Part shown: positions 14,978 through 56,711 of the stretch, piece after piece
How the letters are laid out: each line of letters begins with the position of its first letter
How positions within the stretch are numbered: the stretch's first letter is position 1
Program-made: the position numbers and the translations under genes
The notes under the pieces: generated by a model
What the model saw: only the letters and a program-made list of their open reading frames with translations
Database searches by the model: none
Told to the model about the DNA's origin: nothing
Sequence record: NC_054921.1
Source: Escherichia phage vB_EcoM_IME537
Reading direction: 5' to 3' (one strand)
DNA length: 64,000 bases

Positions 14978-16797
14978 TACTGGCTCATCCATTCTTTACG
15001 AAGGTCAGCATTATCTCCCATGAGCATTTCAAAAAGCTCTTTCCAATTCTCAGGAAGTTTAACAACATCATATACTGGGTTTTGAATCATCTCACGATAT
15101 TCAGATTTTTCCAAAGAGCCAAGTCCCTTAATATAACGGATGCTATGTTTAGGTAGAGCATCTTTGGCACTCTCATATTCAGCGACTGTATAAAACCATT
15201 CTTGTTTTTTGCCGACCTGAGCGATGATTACAGGAGTTTTGACAAAGCGAATTCTTCCTTGTTCAAACAATTCTGGCCAATTACTAAAAAATCCGAGCAG
15301 AGAAGGATAAATGCTTCCTAGACCATCATGGTCAGCATCGGTCATAATTGCAATATTATGATAATTCAAGTTTTCGGCTTTTTCACCAAGAACTAATCCA
15401 GTGATTGCGCAAATATCAAACAGTTCTTTGTTTTTAAGCATATCAGCATATGACATACCCCAACTGTTGAGAACTTTACCACGCAATGGATAACCACCAT
15501 GAAGTTCTTTATCACGAACATCAATAAGATATCCAATAGCAGAATCACCCTCAGTCAAGAAAAGAGTAGTATCAGCATCTTTACCACAAAGATTCGCTTT
15601 AATATGTTTATGAACCTTAGCTTTAGAAGCCTTTTTAGCTGCTTTAGTTTCTGCTGCTTTTTCTGCCGCCAATTTACGAGCAAGGGCAGCTTCAATGATT
15701 GGCATTAAAATTGCTTCATTATTTAAAATAGCACGTGAAATCTTTTTAGCATCAAGCTGAATATGACTACGGATTTCACCAAATGGAGAAGTAAGTCGTT
15801 CTTTAGTTTGAGAATCAAATCGCATGTTTTTCATATCACGGACAAACATAACGATAGTCAAACATTCTTTGACACGTGCTTTAGTTACATCAATTTTGAA
15901 TTTACGTTTGATTTGTGGAATAAGGTCTTCACAAATATCATCCATAACGCAGTCAATGTGATGGCCACCATTCTTAGTATGAATGTTATTGACGTATGTT
16001 AATTGACGAAAACCATCCGGTGAACGACCAACAGCAATAGAACAATTTTCTTGTTCTTGAACGATAGCATGTTCATCATACTGTCGTGCATATTTCTTAA
16101 AATTACCCTGAACCTTTTTACCATTAAAGGTAAATTGAATATCAGGATAAACTACTGCAAGTGTCTGGAGACGATCCAGTGTAATGTCAAGATAAACTTG
16201 AGATAGCTCATTAGTTTCAAATGACATAAAATCAGGAATGAAAGTAACGCGAGTTCCTTTCCATTTTCCAGGAATAGTTTCCCACGATTTATTTTCCATG
16301 CCATTTGAACAACGAACTACAATATTATTTTGACCATCGCCGGTTTCACCGACAAACATCACAGAAAAAATATTAGTTAAACTAGAACCAACACCATTCA
16401 TACCACCAGTGACGCGTTCTTTATCATCACCGAAGTTACCACCTGCTTTTGGAATAGTCCATGCAGCAACTGGACCAGGAATTTCTTCACCGGTAGGTGT
16501 TTTAACCATCGCCTGTGGAATACCGCGACCGTTATCTTCAACTGTTACTTGATTGTTTTTAATAGTAACATTAATTTTATTTGCGAATTTAAACTTAGTA
16601 CGAATACCTTCATCTACTGAGTTATCGATAATTTCATCAATAAGCTTAACAAGACCAGGTACATACTGAACACTTTCCCATTTACCAAACAGAAAGCGCT
16701 CATGCATTTCATTAGCTGAAGAGCCAATGTACATGCCGCTACGCTTTTTGATATGTTCAATATCGCTCAGAATTTTAATTTCATTCTTAATCATCAC
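14977..16797 (-). CDS. 39: DNA topoisomerase II large subunit gp39 (GyrB-like), unsplit
   Basis: 606 aa continuous ORF with GHKL ATPase motifs (..EDNGRGIP.., ..GGKFG-like..) and Toprim region; no gene 60 split or bypass. Confidence 0.9.
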   Translation of the reverse strand: MMIKNEIKILSDIEHIKKRSGMYIGSSANEMHERFLFGKWESVQYVPGLVKLIDEIIDNSVDEGIRTKFKFANKINVTIKNNQVTVEDNGRGIPQAMVKTPTGEEIPGPVAAWTIPKAGGNFGDDKERVTGGMNGVGSSLTNIFSVMFVGETGDGQNNIVVRCSNGMENKSWETIPGKWKGTRVTFIPDFMSFETNELSQVYLDITLDRLQTLAVVYPDIQFTFNGKKVQGNFKKYARQYDEHAIVQEQENCSIAVGRSPDGFRQLTYVNNIHTKNGGHHIDCVMDDICEDLIPQIKRKFKIDVTKARVKECLTIVMFVRDMKNMRFDSQTKERLTSPFGEIRSHIQLDAKKISRAILNNEAILMPIIEAALARKLAAEKAAETKAAKKASKAKVHKHIKANLCGKDADTTLFLTEGDSAIGYLIDVRDKELHGGYPLRGKVLNSWGMSYADMLKNKELFDICAITGLVLGEKAENLNYHNIAIMTDADHDGLGSIYPSLLGFFSNWPELFEQGRIRFVKTPVIIAQVGKKQEWFYTVAEYESAKDALPKHSIRYIKGLGSLEKSEYREMIQNPVYDVVKLPENWKELFEMLMGDNADLRKEWMSQ

Positions 16798-26876: not shown

Positions 26877-27113
26877 TTAACCACCTATTGTTGTAGGCGT
26901 AAACATTGCAGCATTCTTAGTTTTCCAAGTTGCTGCATCGGAAACTACAGTAGAATATGCTGCCTTTTCTGACGGAAAGATTTGATAATGAGAATCCGCG
27001 ATACGGTGTTCATTTGAATATACATCAAATGCTACAGAAACTTCCATACCTTTAACTTCTTTGCCTTCACCCGCTGGATGAGTAAAGGTCTTGATGTTAA
27101 CGAAACCACCCAT
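26877..27113 (-). CDS. soc: Small outer capsid protein Soc homolog
   Basis: 78 aa; ..VNIKTF..EVSVAF..HYQIFPSEKAAYSTV.. resembles T4 Soc (recalled), but diverged. Confidence 0.7.
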   Translation of the reverse strand: MGGFVNIKTFTHPAGEGKEVKGMEVSVAFDVYSNEHRIADSHYQIFPSEKAAYSTVVSDAATWKTKNAAMFTPTTIGG

Positions 27114-27152
27114 AATAAACTCCTTTATTGTTTAATTACAAGTGTATTTATA

Positions 27153-27326
27153 TCAATCTTCAATGAAAACTTGTGCCAGGAATTCATGCTCATCTTGAAT
27201 TTGTTTATATAAAGCCATTACAGCATTTATGTTAGAGCTATCTACTTTAAGTTGATAAGCATACCACTCATGTAAATTAATTAAAGCTTTTTGACGTCTA
27301 ATAAATTCTTCTTTGGATATTTTCAT
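27153..27326 (-). CDS. Small hypothetical protein (57 aa)
   Basis: Hand-translated MKISKEEFIRRQKALINLHEWYAYQ..; ATG overlaps stop of upstream ORF. Confidence 0.35.
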   Translation of the reverse strand: MKISKEEFIRRQKALINLHEWYAYQLKVDSSNINAVMALYKQIQDEHEFLAQVFIED

Positions 27327-27532
27327 TTTGAATGCTCTATAATTAATTTTAAGGCTTCTTCACTTACAAAAATTTCATCAGGACCTTCTTCTACAACCCA
27401 ATCAACCCAATCAACCACACGAAGCTGATTAGATAAGAGCTCACATACGAGCTCTTTGTCATAATTTTTAAATAGCTGGTCAATACGTTTCTTGCGGGCT
27501 TTCTTAAGCTGGCGTTTATTTAAACGAGCCAT
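27323..27532 (-). CDS. Hypothetical protein
   Basis: 69 aa, basic N-terminus. Confidence 0.45.
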   Translation of the reverse strand: MARLNKRQLKKARKKRIDQLFKNYDKELVCELLSNQLRVVDWVDWVVEEGPDEIFVSEEALKLIIEHSK

Positions 27533-28050
27533 TAATAACCTCGATCTTGACGTGCGAAGTTTTCAGCATTTTTCAGATAATAAAGTTTAAAGATTTCTTC
27601 AGCTGTAAGACCAAGACCTTGGAACATGTTCAGAACGAAATGAAGAATATCAATCATTTCGAATTTAATTTCCAACTGGTCTTGTGGAGACAAATCAGTA
27701 ATTAGAGTTTCACGACGTTCACCATGTTGAGCTTTCCAAGGCTTCCATACAGCAGATGCATCTTTTTCGCCATTGCTCATACCGCCAAGAGATGTCAGAA
27801 GTTCACGGAATTCATCGTCAATATAATCTTTCTGATTACGCAGCCAATCAACAACTTCACCTGCAGTAGCCAAATCATCAGGATGACGGTTATATTCAGG
27901 TTTATCTTTAGCTAAACGAACCTGTAAAGATTTCTGCATATCAAGCATAACCTGCAGCGGGTCTTTTTCGTCACCGAGAATATCCCAGTATTCATTTTGA
28001 GCTTTATCAGCGCCTTCGATCAGTTGACTACATTCGTTGAAATGTGGCAT
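27532..28050 (-). CDS. 56: dCTP pyrophosphatase gp56 (MazG-like)
   Basis: 172 aa; MazG-type NTP pyrophosphohydrolase fold features; T4 gp56 is about 171 aa. Confidence 0.8.
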   Translation of the reverse strand: MPHFNECSQLIEGADKAQNEYWDILGDEKDPLQVMLDMQKSLQVRLAKDKPEYNRHPDDLATAGEVVDWLRNQKDYIDDEFRELLTSLGGMSNGEKDASAVWKPWKAQHGERRETLITDLSPQDQLEIKFEMIDILHFVLNMFQGLGLTAEEIFKLYYLKNAENFARQDRGY

Positions 28051-28051
28051 G

Positions 28052-28702
28052 TTATTTTTCCTTTCTTATGAAGTTTTCTATCATATGTCTATAGCAGATA
28101 TTAGGATAACCTGCCTTGACAGCTATTTTATTAAATTTTGTGCGCTTAGGTCTATTATTATAAACCCATAATTCATAAAGCGCATCATAACTATTCCATA
28201 TTTCTCCTCGCCTAGGATTTGGTAAACCATATCGAGGTGAATTTTTACCGCTAAATCTTCCTTTTCGGGCTTTACTCATATTAGCCTTGGCTTCATCGGA
28301 TATAATTTTACCTTTATGAGCTAGACGCATTTTGGCTTTAGTTTCTTCTGGGGTCTTTTTGCCTTTAATCCATGACGGCTTGCCATATCTAGGATTATTT
28401 TCACCCGAGAAAAGAACAGAGTTTTGGATTTTAAGGGTTTCTATTAATCTACTTGTTAATTTAACACCTTTATTATATCGCATTAAATTTACAGCATAAT
28501 GCAATCCTCTCACATCTGGATATATTTTAGTTAATAATCTATGAGCTATAAAATGCTCACGAGCAGTTAACTCAACAAGATTGTTTTTGTCATCTGCTCC
28601 TCCCATACATCTAGGAATTATATGATGGCGTTCTTTATATCCGCCAAGATGCCGGCATTTAGCTTTTGTAATTAAAGCCGAGTAAATTTTTTGGTAATTC
28701 AC
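28052..28702 (-). CDS. HNH homing endonuclease with NUMOD3-like repeats (free-standing)
   Basis: 216 aa; HNH motif (..RHHIIPRCMGG..NLVELTAREH..) plus two ..NPRYG..K.. NUMOD3-like DNA-binding repeats; AT-rich; sits between 56 and dam. Confidence 0.75.
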   Translation of the reverse strand: MNYQKIYSALITKAKCRHLGGYKERHHIIPRCMGGADDKNNLVELTAREHFIAHRLLTKIYPDVRGLHYAVNLMRYNKGVKLTSRLIETLKIQNSVLFSGENNPRYGKPSWIKGKKTPEETKAKMRLAHKGKIISDEAKANMSKARKGRFSGKNSPRYGLPNPRRGEIWNSYDALYELWVYNNRPKRTKFNKIAVKAGYPNICYRHMIENFIRKEK

Positions 28703-28761
28703 ATATATCCTTTCAATTCATTAATAAGTTAAATAATTATATCATTTGAGTGTGTAAGCAA

Positions 28762-30101
<1,340 letters not shown>

Positions 30102-30191: not shown

Positions 30192-30392
30192 ATGGTACAA
30201 AAATTAATGGCACTTGTTAATGCCATAAAAGGTAATAAGAAACGTATAGCTTTTACTATTTCTGCTATGATAGGAATTTTACTTTGGAATTTTGTTTTAT
30301 CGCCAGTTGCTATTGCTCATGGCGTTAATATTCCAGTAATTACTCTCGATACATTCGTAGATTTAGCATTTGCTTTAGTTGGGTTAATTTAA
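30192..30392 (+). CDS. Small membrane protein (66 aa), divergent + strand gene
   Basis: Strong AAAGGAGGA RBS 7 nt before ATG; two predicted TM helices; one of very few + strand genes in the early region. Confidence 0.5.
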   Translation: MVQKLMALVNAIKGNKKRIAFTISAMIGILLWNFVLSPVAIAHGVNIPVITLDTFVDLAFALVGLI

Positions 30393-35160: not shown

Positions 35161-36316
35161 TTAACTGATCTAGGTCAGTTTCTAAATCAGCTGCTGATTT
35201 ACTTTTACTTTCTGGAGATTTAAATTTTTCAACCTTTGAGTTAATTAATTCATCAACTTCAGCTTCAACAATTTCATTGCTATCAATAGCACCTAACTGA
35301 TAAGCACGTTTAATAGCATCTCGGAATGGCTGATGTTTAAATAAAGGACCCCAGAATGTAGTGCAATTGGTATCTTTTGCACGCCAAGATTTTTCTTCGC
35401 GAATCATCTCGCCGGTTTCTTCGTCAAGAAATTCACGAGCATACCAGCCATTTTTAGGTTTTACTACAAATCCTAATTCAAGAGCCATATCTAACAATCC
35501 AGAATAAGGATCGATACCACCGTCAAATTTAACATCAATAAAGAATTTACTTTTTTCTTTAACGGTACGAGATTTTTCTACATTTAGAACAAATTGATAC
35601 CCCTGAAGATCAGAACCATCTTTAATCTGGCGCTTACCGATAATGAATACAGTATCAGCCGAATACATTACGCCTGTACCACCTGTCATCACGGTTTTAC
35701 TAAACATTTCAATTGTTTCAATTGTATGGTTAACCGCAACACATGGAATGTTTTTAATACTAAAATAAGGAGTAACGATACGGAATAATGACTTCAGTGA
35801 TTTAGCACGAGTCATATCTGCCACAGATTTTTCATTCAAGGCATCTTCCGTTTCTTTCTTAGAAGCCATATTACCGATTGAGTCGATGAATACAATAACT
35901 TTTTCACCACGCTCGATAGCTTCAAGCTGATTCACCATATCAATTTTCAGCTGTTCAACTGACTGGATTGGTGTATGAATTACTCGTTCCGGGTCAACTC
36001 CCATGGATCGCAAATAAGCTGGAGTAATACCAAATTCGCTATCATAGAATAAACAAACCGCATCAGGATATTTGTTCAAATACGCCGCAACCATAGTCAA
36101 AGACATATTTGATTTAAAGTGTTTAGAAGGACCTGCAAAAATAGTTAAACCAGACTGCATACCGCCATCAATCGCACCGGAAATAGCAATATTAAGCATT
36201 GGGATTTTTGTACGGATTACATCCTTTTCATTAAAGAATTTAGATGTAGTCAGTTCAGCAGTCATTTTAGAAGTGGAAGCTTTAATCAAACGGGATTTTA
36301 AATCTGCAATAGACAT
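35135..36316 (-). CDS. uvsX: Recombinase UvsX (RecA/Rad51 family)
   Basis: 393 aa; Walker A GPSKHFKS; near-identical to T4 UvsX as recalled. Confidence 0.95.
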   Translation of the reverse strand: MSIADLKSRLIKASTSKMTAELTTSKFFNEKDVIRTKIPMLNIAISGAIDGGMQSGLTIFAGPSKHFKSNMSLTMVAAYLNKYPDAVCLFYDSEFGITPAYLRSMGVDPERVIHTPIQSVEQLKIDMVNQLEAIERGEKVIVFIDSIGNMASKKETEDALNEKSVADMTRAKSLKSLFRIVTPYFSIKNIPCVAVNHTIETIEMFSKTVMTGGTGVMYSADTVFIIGKRQIKDGSDLQGYQFVLNVEKSRTVKEKSKFFIDVKFDGGIDPYSGLLDMALELGFVVKPKNGWYAREFLDEETGEMIREEKSWRAKDTNCTTFWGPLFKHQPFRDAIKRAYQLGAIDSNEIVEAEVDELINSKVEKFKSPESKSKSAADLETDLDQLSDMEEFNE

Positions 36317-36393
36317 TCATTTTTTCCATAGGCATCATTATATTTTCCTCACTGGTTAAAGATAGGGTAATTATAACACAATAAATTTAGGCA

Positions 36394-37242
36394 TTAATCA
36401 ACTGCTATTGGATGAATAGCATTAAACTTATGAAACGCTTCTGATTTTTCTTTGCGCGAAACACACATACGAAGAACCTTTAATGGCTCGTCTTCTTCAC
36501 CTAATGATTTTCGTTTTTCAATATTAGAAGTTTTCCAACGAGCTTGCTCTGGAAACTCTCTATTGATTTGCTCGAGCGCTCTATTATGTTTTGAATTACT
36601 ACGAATTGAACTACATCCGCCAGGAGCTTGTGCTTTTCCAGATACAACTAGATATTTGAACAAGGCCAAATGCGGATAACCTTGATTAATTAAATTGAGA
36701 AATGCATACATATCTTCGCATAAATCAATTTTTCCATACCCAATTTGTTCTGTTGTAAGTTTTCCGAGGTCATACCAGGTATTCGTGAATCCATATGAAT
36801 TTTCACGATAATTACCCCAAGATGAAGTAATTTTAAAAATAGGTAGACGAGCATGGCCATGATAATACCCGCAATCCATGGCATCTTTAACGTATTGAAT
36901 CAATTCATAGAACTGTTCACGGGTTAATTGATTAATTTTATCTACGCAGCGACGATCATCTTTCTTTCGCATTGAACTCATACGAATAGTAGTATCATCA
37001 TCGATCATCCAAATTCGTTGACCTGCATACATATCAGTAATTGCTTTACGAGTTCCAGCAATTCCATTTACATCATCGGGAATAACTACAATTTTAGCTC
37101 TAGACCCGTAAGCGTCATAATAAGCTTTTTCTTCGTGTTCACGTACTACAATATGAGGTTCATAATCAGTCGGAAACATATCAAGGGCAGAAACTGCCCC
37201 TACGCGTTGATAGCTTGGAATTACGAATTGAATCATTTCCAC
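36394..37242 (-). CDS. Putative DNA glycosyltransferase (DxD motif) at the T4 beta-gt locus
   Basis: 282 aa; ..IWMIDDDTT.. DxD-type motif; occupies the uvsX-42 interval where T4 has beta-gt (351 aa), consistent with a T2/T6-type second glucosyltransferase. Confidence 0.45.
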   Translation of the reverse strand: MEMIQFVIPSYQRVGAVSALDMFPTDYEPHIVVREHEEKAYYDAYGSRAKIVVIPDDVNGIAGTRKAITDMYAGQRIWMIDDDTTIRMSSMRKKDDRRCVDKINQLTREQFYELIQYVKDAMDCGYYHGHARLPIFKITSSWGNYRENSYGFTNTWYDLGKLTTEQIGYGKIDLCEDMYAFLNLINQGYPHLALFKYLVVSGKAQAPGGCSSIRSNSKHNRALEQINREFPEQARWKTSNIEKRKSLGEEDEPLKVLRMCVSRKEKSEAFHKFNAIHPIAVD

Positions 37243-37973
37243 TCACCGTTATAATCTTTTTTCGCAATATGAGTTTCGCCAGTTTTCCACCAATGGTCAA
37301 CCAAATAAAAATGACGAGAATACACATGAAGGCTTCCAACATTCCATATAATGGAACCTGCTTTATACTGACGAGTTGAATCACCTGCATTCAAATCAGA
37401 TACTAATTTATCTAGTACGTATTTTTGCCATGCATAATCATTACGGAATCCAAAGACCACGTCATTTGAACGCATGCTTACTACTGCATTGACTTTCTTA
37501 TCACGAATCAGGTACTGTACTGTATTCGTACACATGAAATCTGACATACCATCTTTGTTGTAGTCAAACTGCATGGATGGACGAGTATAAATCATGATAC
37601 CGCGGCGAGAATCAGGATTTTGACCAAGTTCAGCTAAACACATATCATACTGGGCATAGTTATCTTCTGACCAGATAGCCCAACCATAATTCGAGTTAAT
37701 TTCACCTTTAGAAGATGCTACCTGTTGCCAAATCTTTGGCGTTTCGCCTGGAATATCTTTAACAAACAGACTTTGAGACTTATACCATTCAAGTTCACGT
37801 TGAATGTATTCATCATTAAGAGCACCAAAAATAAAAGGTTCATCTGCTACAAATGATGCGCCAATAATTTCAATAGTTTTAACACCAGTTTTATCAACTA
37901 CGAAATCTTTTTCCTTTAATGCAATTCCCAAATGAAGACGGGTTTCTTCAACTGTCATAGAGTCATTAATCAT
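37233..37973 (-). CDS. 42: dCMP hydroxymethylase gp42
   Basis: 246 aa; thymidylate-synthase-like fold; matches T4 gp42 as recalled. Confidence 0.9.
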   Translation of the reverse strand: MINDSMTVEETRLHLGIALKEKDFVVDKTGVKTIEIIGASFVADEPFIFGALNDEYIQRELEWYKSQSLFVKDIPGETPKIWQQVASSKGEINSNYGWAIWSEDNYAQYDMCLAELGQNPDSRRGIMIYTRPSMQFDYNKDGMSDFMCTNTVQYLIRDKKVNAVVSMRSNDVVFGFRNDYAWQKYVLDKLVSDLNAGDSTRQYKAGSIIWNVGSLHVYSRHFYLVDHWWKTGETHIAKKDYNGEWK

Positions 37974-48376: not shown

Positions 48377-49578
48377 TATTTTGTAATAATGTCAAACTGT
48401 TCTTTAAAGCAGAAGCTTGAATCTTGGTGCTGATACAAAAATTCATAAGCTTTTTCACGTTCACGGTCATAAAGAGCTCGGTCAGATGACAGTTCTTTAA
48501 TACGTTCAAATGTTGATTCCATGTCATTTTCATCAAACCAAACGATACCGCTATCGTGCGAAATTAATGGAGTATTATCAACACGGAATTTTAAATTTTC
48601 GCCAGTAGATTTCCAAAATACTGGAATTGTTCCACATGCACCAAGCTCGAGATGAGTATATTCTAAAGAACGCTGTAGATATTTTTTATCTAATTTACTC
48701 AGCTGATAACCAAATCCGGATTTACTCATGCGTTCAAGCATTTCGCTATTTACATAACGGTCGAGAATTTGCGTCGGCAAATTAGGAGCAATTTTAATTT
48801 GGTCTACTTGATGAAGACGATAATACTCGTATGGAATTCCTTTTTCTTTAATAGGAATGAACGCTGGAGAACGTTCCAGACCTTCCATAATAGTACTTAG
48901 TCCTGCAGGTTTAAGATGTTTTTCGTGAAAATCAAACATCTGATAAAAGCCTTTCCATGTAGTAGTACGACCAATCCAACGATTGATATTCATGTTAATT
49001 TCAGAAACATCTTTCCAGTAGGTTGATCGAACCTTCGCAATATCCATGGGAGGCTGAAAGTTATATACGGTCGGTGCTTCTTCAATATCATCAAATAGAG
49101 AAACAGTTTCCGGATACCATTCTTTCATCAGAACTTTATTAAAATCACCATTATCAGAATGGCTAAAAATAACATCAGCCCGACGAACAGTTTCTTCTAA
49201 TCCCAAATTTCGACGCAAAGAAAGAGAAGAATGGTCATGCTGATAAACTACAACACGAACCGAAGGTTTAATGTTATCAATAATTTTTTTATAGTTATTA
49301 ATGGTGTCTTCTTCAACTGAAGTAGCAGGAACTGAATTGATAACTAGAATATCACAATCATTTACCAGCTTAAGCGTTTTATCGTATTCTTTTGCCAATA
49401 AAACCGGAATTGAAAATGATTTATAATCATGCGCGCAATTACGAGTAAATGATTTATCTTTAGCATAAACCAAAGTTACTTCATGACCATTTTTAATAAA
49501 CCAATCACGCTGCTCAAGAGAAAATTTAGTTACACCGCAACCTTCAAGACCTCGAGCCATAAAAATGCATACTTTCAT
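48376..49578 (-). CDS. agt: DNA alpha-glucosyltransferase
   Basis: 400 aa; MKVCIFMARGLEGCGVTKFSLEQRDWFIKNGHEV.. closely matches T4 alpha-gt as recalled. Confidence 0.9.
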   Translation of the reverse strand: MKVCIFMARGLEGCGVTKFSLEQRDWFIKNGHEVTLVYAKDKSFTRNCAHDYKSFSIPVLLAKEYDKTLKLVNDCDILVINSVPATSVEEDTINNYKKIIDNIKPSVRVVVYQHDHSSLSLRRNLGLEETVRRADVIFSHSDNGDFNKVLMKEWYPETVSLFDDIEEAPTVYNFQPPMDIAKVRSTYWKDVSEINMNINRWIGRTTTWKGFYQMFDFHEKHLKPAGLSTIMEGLERSPAFIPIKEKGIPYEYYRLHQVDQIKIAPNLPTQILDRYVNSEMLERMSKSGFGYQLSKLDKKYLQRSLEYTHLELGACGTIPVFWKSTGENLKFRVDNTPLISHDSGIVWFDENDMESTFERIKELSSDRALYDREREKAYEFLYQHQDSSFCFKEQFDIITK

Positions 49579-49821
49579 TTAATATCCTCATTGTTTTGGT
49601 TTATTTTACCAAAAATTTATAAAGCAATATAGGAGCCGAGGCTCCTATCCGCATAATACGCCATACAGAGGCTCATTAGAGCTTCTAAATTTTATGCGCT
49701 TATATGTTATAGTTCCTTCTGCTTTAGCTTTATCGTGAGCCTCTTTAAAGCGTCTCATCATTTCTACTTTAGAGGAACGAATTTTATTATAATCTATTTC
49801 AGAAGTCTGGGTGTTCATCTT

Positions 49822-53919: not shown

Positions 53920-54390
53920 TTAATCATGTTTCCACACCCCATCGGTATTTGACCAAAGCCGCTGATTATCTGAACCTCGCCACAGCTTTTTGGTCGGAAG
54001 ATTTTTCTCATACTTCCCATCAATAATAACATCAACATATTTAAGCATTTCTAGTTGTTTAATATCTTCAAACTTATATCCTGTCCACAACCAAATGCTT
54101 TTATTCGGATAAAGATTTTTTACCGTTTGAACAATGCAATGAACATCATCTCGGTTATCAGGATAAAGAGGGTCTCCTCCAGTTATAGTTAATCCTTCTA
54201 TATAATCATTATTCAAACATTCAATTAATTGTTCTAGTGTTTCACCAGTGAATGGAACGCCATTTCTAGCATTCCATGTTGATTTATTATAACACCCTTC
54301 ACATTTATGCAAACACCCCGTAACGAAAAGAACGACCCTGCATCCAGGGCCATTTACAAAATCGCAGGGATAAAATCTATCGTAATTCAT
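53920..54390 (-). CDS. nrdG: Anaerobic ribonucleotide reductase activating protein NrdG (radical SAM)
   Basis: 156 aa; CxxxCxxC cluster (CLHKCEGC); same size as T4 NrdG. Confidence 0.9.
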   Translation of the reverse strand: MNYDRFYPCDFVNGPGCRVVLFVTGCLHKCEGCYNKSTWNARNGVPFTGETLEQLIECLNNDYIEGLTITGGDPLYPDNRDDVHCIVQTVKNLYPNKSIWLWTGYKFEDIKQLEMLKYVDVIIDGKYEKNLPTKKLWRGSDNQRLWSNTDGVWKHD

Positions 54391-55685: not shown

Positions 55686-56711
55686 CGCAAATTCATGCCC
55701 GTTTATATGAAACAACAAAATTTGGATAGTCCATAGATATGCAACGTTCTTTTATAGTGCTAGGATGAAAATTTAGCGCTTTAGCTGCTTCTATATAAGA
55801 CGTATACTTAATACCGTCAACAACCACATATTCAGGAACTTTATGAATAGTAGTCTTAATACTCAAAACAAGAGGATGAGTTTCGACTTCACTTTCAGTG
55901 CAATTTAAATATTCCGCTGCTTTTTTAAAACTTCTAAAAGTTTTATTTTTAAGCTTTATCGATACTTGTTTTTTACTTTTTCGACTATTGATATTATTTT
56001 GCACATGTTCCTTAGATCTTCCGTTTTTAGCATAATATTCAGCTACAGAAGATTTTATATTGTTTTTATGAGATTCGGATAACACTTTACCCTTATGAGC
56101 ATCTCTTAATTTTTGAATATGTTCTTCAGTATCCGGATGCTTATAAAACTTTTTACCGCCTATGGATTTATTTAAACATTTTTTGCTATAAAAATATTTA
56201 CGTATGACCTCTTCTTCATGTTTTAATGCATCTTTATAACTATCAAATGTTTTTAAAATTATCCATTTAGTAGGTGTATCAGTTTTTAAGCGTTCATTTA
56301 TATACTTAGATGACGTTGTGTAAGTTTTCCAGTTTGTGGGCTTGTTTTTAATTGTTCTAAATTTTTTATAACCGATATAAATGTCGCCATTAGAAAACTT
56401 AACTAAGTATGTAAATGCGTCTTTATCTTTTATTTTAGTACAACGTCTTTTTATCCATTTCATTGTTTCACCTCGTATTCATAAGATAATCTTATTTATA
56501 CAAGATGACTGCTGCATGTCGCCATGCAGATTAGACTATATCTTCATCTTTCGATGCCGGCCGTTTCGAATAGCATTAGCTTCTATTCTACACCGCTACA
56601 TTCATCACGGTTAGTCGTTAGGCATTTAGTTCAAAAGAACATTTAGCACGGGATTGTCTACTAGAGAGGTTCCCCGTTTAGACCGGTTTTACATGAGCCT
56701 GAATTAAATTA
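55686..56711 (-). mobile_element. Group I self-splicing intron in nrdD (sunY-type) with homing endonuclease ORF; boundaries approximate
   Basis: About 1.03 kb interruption of an otherwise colinear nrdD; structured non-coding 5' core of about 240 nt (56464-56711) followed by an endonuclease ORF that ends a few nt before exon 2. Confidence 0.7.
55693..56463 (-). CDS. Intron-encoded GIY-YIG-like homing endonuclease (I-TevII-like)
   Basis: 256 aa; N-terminal ..FTYLVKFSNGDIYIGYKKF.. GIY-YIG-like motif, basic C-terminal DNA-binding region; GAGGTGA RBS; sits in the 3' part of the intron. Confidence 0.6.
   Translation of the reverse strand: MKWIKRRCTKIKDKDAFTYLVKFSNGDIYIGYKKFRTIKNKPTNWKTYTTSSKYINERLKTDTPTKWIILKTFDSYKDALKHEEEVIRKYFYSKKCLNKSIGGKKFYKHPDTEEHIQKLRDAHKGKVLSESHKNNIKSSVAEYYAKNGRSKEHVQNNINSRKSKKQVSIKLKNKTFRSFKKAAEYLNCTESEVETHPLVLSIKTTIHKVPEYVVVDGIKYTSYIEAAKALNFHPSTIKERCISMDYPNFVVSYKRA

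Follow-up and report, generated by a model that had tools for sequence, protein, structure and literature searches.

A putative Mob-family HNH homing endonuclease at the start of gene 56 in Escherichia phage vB_EcoM_IME537

What is the open reading frame that separates gene 56 from dam in Escherichia phage vB_EcoM_IME537, and how did it come to lie there? We analysed a window of 64,000 nucleotides of this genome (NC_054921.1), to which all positions below refer unless another record is named. An earlier reading made from the sequence alone had described the frame as a free-standing HNH/NUMOD3 homing endonuclease, mobE/seg-like, inserted between two conserved genes. We consider it probable, with good confidence, that the frame encodes a functional, free-standing homing endonuclease that belongs to the T4 Mob (HNH) family and homes at gene 56.

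The inserted gene and its protein

The coding sequence, its domains and its neighbours are all encoded on the minus strand:

28052..28702, minus: coding sequence of the Mob-family HNH homing endonuclease; 216 aa, GTG start, TAA stop
28517..28702, minus: N-terminal HNH nuclease domain, approximately aa 1-62; motif HH26-27 ... N41 ... EH49-50 ... H54
28205..28408, minus: linker with NUMOD3 DNA-binding repeats (Pfam PF07460), approximately aa 99-166
28058..28204, minus: C-terminal three-helix domain, approximately aa 167-215, in common with T4 MobD
27532..28050, minus: gene 56 (dCTPase/dUTPase), downstream neighbour; PHROG 173, E=6.5e-47
28762..29541, minus: dam (D12-class N6-adenine methyltransferase), upstream neighbour; Pfam PF02086, E=1.4e-50

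Both neighbours thus bear the identities given to them in the sequence-only reading. In the window, the TAA codon of the endonuclease lies one base ahead of the gene 56 ATG.

The two NUMOD3-like repeats noticed earlier are recovered by Pfam as two NUMOD3 stretches (PF07460; E=8e-7, best at aa 107-126), whose 29.3 bits exceed the gathering score of 20.4. The HNH domain scores 18.4 bits, short of the Pfam cut-off of 21.4. Nevertheless, residues H26, H27, N41, E49, H50, and H54 do not vary in an alignment of 60 homologous sequences, and hence we consider the motif intact despite its sub-threshold score; its loss on careful alignment had been named in advance as a result that would overturn the assignment. 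PHROG 655 ("homing endonuclease") matches residues 1-210 (E=3e-60), and 3065 homologues were found among 5.8 billion proteins. The AlphaFold (AF2) model has a mean pLDDT of 84.6, reaching 92-97 in the HNH domain, where it forms a beta-beta-alpha core (E24-27, E42-45, H47-60), and it ends in a three-helix bundle, presumed to be a sequence-specific DNA-binding module. A sequence search of the PDB returned nothing under E=0.15, and NCBIfam gave no match. One earlier remark failed: the frame is not AT-rich, as its GC content of 33.9% falls at the 38th percentile of the window (mean 34.8%, sd 3.0). The AT-rich genes are instead dam, at 28.7%, and its 186-aa upstream neighbour, at 27.6%.

A chance or mis-annotated frame encoding no protein might be suspected from the GTG start, the sub-threshold HNH score and an AT-rich genome in which long frames are less rare. 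This explanation is already refuted by the homologues and the PHROG match, as well as by strong purifying selection, a ribosome-binding site at the correct spacing and an N-terminus, MNYQKIY, in common with MobB, MobC, MobD, and MobE of T4.

Alignments with the empty sites of T4 and Yersinia phage ZN18 define a clean insertion of 649 bp, in keeping with the intergenic insertion proposed earlier. BLAST matches to both empty sites break at 28065 and at 28708 (the 28707/28708 edge), and the matches of 177 dam-containing phage records begin at 28708. Each end of the insertion is marked by a copy of GAAAGGA, a 7-bp direct repeat that corresponds to the gene 56 ribosome-binding site. Written on the minus (coding) strand, the empty site reads ...TTAATGAATT GAAAGGA AAAATA ATG GCN..., and the filled site reads ...TTAATGAATT GAAAGGA TATAT GTG [endonuclease] ...TTC ATA A GAAAGGA AAAATAAC ATG CCA.... 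The flanking reading frames are intact on both sides, and the location is intergenic, neither an intron nor an intein. The signals around the insertion are as follows:

28708..28714, minus: upstream GAAAGGA copy, left insertion edge; now the endonuclease ribosome-binding site, with a 5-nt spacer to the GTG
28059..28065, minus: downstream GAAAGGA copy, right insertion edge; native ribosome-binding site of gene 56
28736..28760, minus: predicted MotA-type middle promoter; TGCTTA at 28755-28760, 13-nt spacer, TATAAT at 28736-28741

The endonuclease reads through the pre-existing gene 56 leader to its TAA, the downstream repeat supplying its last codons (AGA AAG GAA AAA TAA). The TGCTTA-N13-TATAAT element is located approximately 35-60 nt upstream of the endonuclease start, a weak GTG. 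A "predicted middle promoter" is annotated at the homologous position of Yersinia phage fPS-65, 35-62 nt upstream of the 56 ATG. The element in the window is therefore predicted to have driven gene 56 originally and now stands upstream of the endonuclease. Placed between this predicted promoter and gene 56, the endonuclease appears to be a promoterless cassette, the layout described for T4 mobA, mobC, mobD, and mobE (PMC2988022). No late promoter (TATAAATA) was found upstream of the endonuclease, sigma-70 and terminator scans gave sites no commoner than in shuffled sequence, and a hairpin of the mobE type sequestering the ribosome-binding site was not significant (z=-0.72). The T4 record maps oriA at 16763 (position 2764 of the T4 stretch L006, equivalent to about 28029 in the window), 22 nt inside gene 56, and names the gene 56 transcript as the origin primer. 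Hence, the cassette sits inside the interval between promoter and origin.

Distribution, horizontal movement and the candidate target

Some part of the 56-dam region is matched by 809 records of the phage collection. The endonuclease is present in 57 of approximately 809 (7%) at megablast sensitivity and in 68 at blastn sensitivity. The following configuration counts are approximate, as they come from junction-specific queries:

dam-less, without endonuclease (61 / small plus-strand ORF / 56): about 230 records
dam-containing, without endonuclease: about 177 records
dam-less, with endonuclease, Tequatrovirus: about 34 records
dam-less, with endonuclease, Klebsiella phages: 22 records
dam-containing, with endonuclease: 1 record (ELT1)

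Clean contiguous empty junctions thus occur in about 407 records against the 57 carriers. This presence/absence comparison had been suggested by the sequence-only reading, which would have been abandoned had no empty-site alleles existed; they abound. Among gene-56 loci from IMG/VR, two of the 45 carry the endonuclease. The T4 record likewise agrees with what the sequence-only reading said of that phage: segF lies on the far side of gene 56, and the dam-56 interval contains no gene. The junction between endonuclease and dam was found in one of 50,697 phage records (ELT1), besides this window, and the full order 56 / endonuclease / dam / 186-aa gene was found in no record of the phage collection.

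The insertion position is identical in every inspected carrier of Tequatrovirus, Jiaodavirus, and Dhakavirus:

Tequatrovirus G4498, ELT1, and 235Ecol030PP: stop one base ahead of the 56 ATG
Jiaodavirus KEN25: stop one base ahead of the 56 ATG
Dhakavirus ESCO10 and an IMG/VR genome: 81%-identical variant with ATG start, stop four bases ahead of the 56 ATG

The idea of a lineage-specific insertion therefore needs amending. The insertion is indeed patchy and polymorphic, but it occupies the same site in three genera, and only its adjacency to dam is rare.

DNA identities between the window and two carriers were compared for the endonuclease and its essential neighbours:

Window against Jiaodavirus KEN25: endonuclease 90.5%, gene 56 74.6%, gene 61 68.5%
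Window against G4498: endonuclease 99.7%, gene 56 95.4%, gene 61 96.4%

Since a selfish gene is here better conserved across genera than the essential genes beside it, recent horizontal spread is indicated. Over aa 101-160, in the NUMOD3 linker, the Dhakavirus variant has 98% amino acid identity. Pairwise dN/dS against six intact homologues is 0.05-0.2, and all seven copies are intact (7/7). Together, the identities and the dN/dS values point to a functional, horizontally moving element.

The same data bear on the suggestion that the gene is a defunct or domesticated Mob relic, an old insertion inherited only vertically, decaying or repurposed as a general nuclease or regulator, its patchiness reflecting repeated loss. 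T4 itself harbours a defective mobA and a defective I-TevIII, and several genomes without the endonuclease (PD112, EC128, L018, L033; see below) resemble precise, scarless losses. We nevertheless judge this history unlikely: the seven copies are intact and under constraint, the catalytic residues are invariant, the cross-genus identity of 90.5% compares with 69-75% for the essential neighbours, and the contrast within Tequatrovirus (99.7% against 95.4% for gene 56) is the opposite of that expected from vertical decay.

The preferred reading, a functional homing gene, requires a target, and gene 56 is the probable one. Among 40 unique endonuclease-free alleles from diverse T4-like phages, the most conserved block around the site spans positions -7 to +33 of the gene 56 ATG (ATG GCN CAY TTT AAT GAA TGT ... 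CAA CTG ATT), directly beside the insertion point. Judging from this conservation, the target likely comprises the conserved ribosome-binding site and 5' end of gene 56.

Carriers have a distinct allele at this position:

28039..28052, minus: endonuclease-linked allele at the gene 56 start; an extra AC, then ATG CCA CAT TTC

Most empty sites read ATA ATG GCN YAY TTT here, and the linked allele changes Ala2 of the gene 56 product to Pro. It is present in all five carriers of >90% identity (5/5), including the Jiaodavirus (Klebsiella phage) one. On the upstream side, by contrast with no such allele, each background keeps its own flank as far as AATTGAAAGGA, as aligned with the T4 empty site. The linked allele extends overall from -2 to +12, and within gene 56 informative-site analysis limits linkage with the endonuclease to positions 4-12. 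A long co-conversion tract was rejected by the same analysis, as the rest of the gene is an unlinked mosaic. Gene 56 of the window is only 75% identical to its T4 counterpart (positions 2271-2786 of L006) amid flanking genes at 93-97%, and it is a fine-scale mosaic among close relatives. Such mosaicism is consistent with repeated endonuclease-driven exchange.

The linked allele (GAAAGGAAAAATAAC ATG CCA CAT TTC) is also found, with no endonuclease and no scar, in PD112 (L067, 2481-2640), EC128 (L068, 2481-2640), L018, and the Jiaodavirus-like L033. In EC128, the linked 5' allele is combined with a T4-type segF downstream of a chimeric gene 56, and there is no HNH gene. These genomes represent either precise deletion between the GAAAGGA copies or an ancestral pre-insertion or immune allele. 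The linked allele is a candidate for the altered (immune) half of the target site; since it occurs without the endonuclease, it could also be ancestral or hitch-hiking and not protective. The Dhakavirus variant adjoins an ordinary ATG GCA allele of gene 56, and hence co-residence does not depend on the CCA allele in every lineage.

From the published behaviour of MobE, MobA, and I-HmuI, we infer the following course of homing. In a mixed infection, the protein would bind the conserved ribosome-binding site and 5' coding region of gene 56 in an endonuclease-free co-infecting phage, using its NUMOD3 repeats and MobD-like C-terminal helical domain, and the HNH domain would nick or cut close by. 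Recombination-dependent repair of the T4 type would then copy the cassette out of the carrier genome, together with a few bases of its flanks. The higher cross-genus identity of the endonuclease than of its neighbours and the shortness of the linked allele lend indirect support to over-transmission with co-conversion of flanks. The recognition site may span the ribosome-binding site and start of gene 56, in which case the insertion parts its upstream half from its downstream half. Self-protection of the carrier would follow from this separation, with the remaining downstream half altered by the AC insertion and the Ala2-to-Pro change.

The same cleavage could serve a different end: a nuclease maintained for phage-versus-phage competition would cut gene 56 or oriA of rivals, excluding their markers or impairing their replication, and its spread would be a by-product. 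T4 homing endonucleases do cause localized marker exclusion of T2 (PMC2988022), and the site lies at an essential gene and, in the T4 record, at oriA. However, the sequence evidence fits homing equally, and only 7% of related records carry the gene; we regard competition as the primary role as rather improbable. For therapeutic Tequatrovirus and Jiaodavirus genomes, the endonuclease gene also indicates where a recombination boundary lies.

The dam neighbourhood and the wider locus

Nearly all endonuclease carriers are without dam. The endonuclease is found in approximately 13% of Tequatrovirus records lacking dam and in 1/178 dam-containing records, an anticorrelation with Fisher p of about 2.5e-7 in a test that ignores shared ancestry. 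Upstream of the cassette, a dam-less donor and a dam-containing recipient share just about 14 bp (ATGAATTGAAAGGA). For the upstream side, repair in such a recipient would usually have to use homology on the far side of dam, around 61, leaving the recipient dam-less; alternatively, a crossover inside the shared leader would keep dam. The rarity of endonuclease and dam together may thus arise because dam-less donors would either delete dam or need a crossover within about 14 bp. By this reasoning, the window and ELT1 would be rare recombinants with a crossover in the short leader. A broader proposal is that the endonuclease drives the methylation status, and possibly the origin usage, of T-even populations, the window and ELT1 being rare recombinants that escaped. 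It draws on the dam-less state of the usual donors and on the insertion point, which falls between the middle promoter and the annotated oriA at the start of gene 56. We hold it doubtful. If true, each homing event into a dam-containing phage would delete both dam and the restriction-endonuclease-like gene paired with it, and would remake the transcript next to the origin.

The partner is the 186-aa gene (29541-30101), which overlaps the dam start (ATGA). Its product is assigned a type II restriction-endonuclease fold, with a sub-threshold DpnII match as the lone Pfam hint, and has an invariant D72...E85-x-K87 motif. Homologues at only 55-59% identity still sit directly upstream of a D12 methylase. 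The 186-aa gene and dam look like a compact restriction-modification-like pair in T-even phages, of which our literature search found no mention. Of the 186-aa gene, T4 (L006, 3626-3712), ELT1 (L002), and PD112 (L067, 1618-1698) keep no more than roughly the final 88 bp (29541-29628). As only this remnant persists, the orphan dam of T4 appears to be a deletion product of a two-gene cassette.

A conserved hydrophobic ORF of 66 aa (30192-30392, plus strand) separates primase gene 61 from the dam cassette. It runs towards the 3' end of gene 61, which it overlaps by 4 bp, and a terminator-like hairpin lies at 30207-30226. It is present in most relatives, and Pfam and NCBIfam give it no name. More generally, T4-like phages have a plasticity hotspot between 61 and 56, an interval that ranges from approximately 270 bp to 1.5 kb in IMG/VR genomes (L024, L028, L037, L038, L045, L047, L058). 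Among its variable contents are an ORF of about 94 aa that recurs (MN.QQH..LKL.EECNEV...), ORFs of 108-111 aa, a protein of 250 aa with a signal peptide, and an ORF of 289 aa rich in glycine.

The record of Escherichia phage vB_EcoM_005 (MK295203.1; L060 / L008 / L048) contains, around the Dhakavirus variant of the endonuclease, a fragmented primase, a 5' stub of gene 56, a divergent gene 56 of full length, part of a second gene 56, and two more endonuclease-like ORFs. This disorder reflects either poor sequence quality or real endonuclease-associated rearrangement. We rejected it as proof of the latter, as the 155-kb record has many fragmented genes and is unreliable.

Relative to T4, the window is without segF, the 60.1/mobA segment, segA with beta-gt, mobB, and mobC, the places concerned being 27058-27532, 15312-15377, 36304-37251, 49569-49594, and 54370-54390. 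Two small ORFs (57 and 69 aa) occupy the place of segF, and a 282-aa ORF at 36394-37242 stands in place of segA and beta-gt. A homologue of I-TevII (55696-56463; 56% aa identity) is the sole T4 homing endonuclease kept in the window.

Comparison with known homing endonucleases

Comparison with the Mob and Seg families by BLASTP, a check that had been advised at the outset, yielded strong matches to four T4 Mob proteins: MobE (65% identity over residues 1-82 of the endonuclease, E=2e-34), MobD (34% over the full length including the C-terminal helical domain, E=5e-35), MobB (47% over 105 residues, E=8e-22), and MobC (35% over 153 residues, E=7e-19). The endonuclease and these proteins have both the N-terminus MNYxKIY and the pattern HHIIPR.MGG.DD..NLV.LT..EH..AH in common. 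The sole similarity to a Seg protein links the C-terminal region of SegA with the NUMOD/C-terminal part of the endonuclease (32% over 87 aa). No GIY-YIG domain was matched in Pfam or PHROGs, so that the protein lacks the mark of the Seg family.

The early comparison with mobE is thus borne out, and, by every sequence and distribution property considered, the gene appears to encode a free-standing HNH homing endonuclease of the T4 Mob family. None of the T4 Mob proteins is its orthologue, and its site is empty in T4. In view of its matches to MobE, MobD, and other T4 Mob proteins, the endonuclease looks modular, with a nuclease head resembling MobE, NUMOD3 repeats, and a tail resembling MobD. 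The label "homing endonuclease" is already in use for it in dozens of GenBank records, and one record names the homologue "putative mobile endonuclease D"; our literature search found no paper characterising it. Annotators can now label the gene as Mob-family instead of generic HNH.

T4 MobE is a free-standing HNH homing endonuclease located between nrdA and nrdB that nicks nrdB of T2. The 82-residue identity of the HNH regions covers MNYQKIY and HHIIPRCMGG.DDK.NLVELTAREHFIAH, and both genes are promoterless intergenic cassettes directly 5' of a conserved nucleotide-metabolism gene. They differ in genomic site and in target, which is nrdB for MobE and presumably gene 56 here. Moreover, T4 MobE has 141 aa and is without the MobD-like C-terminal domain, and neither an internal terminator nor a ribosome-binding-site hairpin like those of mobE was detected in the endonuclease.

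T4 MobD, a free-standing HNH endonuclease between mobD.1 and nrdC.11, is the sole T4 Mob protein that aligns along the entire endonuclease, and both genes abut the start of the downstream gene. On the other hand, the loci differ, the central linker is shorter in the endonuclease (216 vs 259 aa for the whole proteins), and 34% identity is too low for an orthologue. No shared target motif was evident on comparison of the T4 mobD/nrdC.11 junction with the gene 56 junction.

I-HmuI, an intron-encoded HNH nickase of Bacillus phage SPO1 with NUMOD-type DNA-binding modules, has a similar layout, in which an N-terminal HNH domain is followed by extended DNA-binding modules, and similar nicking chemistry would be expected (PMC2988022). 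In contrast to I-HmuI, the endonuclease gene is not intron-encoded, and the searches recovered no significant match in sequence or fold. Mixed infections lead to over-inheritance of MobE and MobA, both of which nick their targets, and how nicking Mob enzymes mobilise is an open question in the field (PMC2988022). The locus offers a clean natural series for studying such mobilisation, comprising sites that are empty, filled, and empty with the linked allele, in backgrounds with and without dam and in three genera.

Finally, T4 SegF is a free-standing GIY-YIG endonuclease that lies between 56 and soc and cleaves gene 56 of T2; gene 56 is thus already established as a homing target of SegF (PMC2988022). 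Both genes are associated with, and the endonuclease probably targets, the same gene 56, and both are patchy among close relatives. They belong to different nuclease families and lie on opposite sides of gene 56, and the window has no segF. Two unrelated endonuclease families at one gene fit a pattern noted for nrdB (PMC2988022). The endonuclease would represent a second homing lineage at gene 56, unrelated to SegF, and supports the idea that homing in T-even phages repeatedly targets a small number of conserved nucleotide-metabolism genes.
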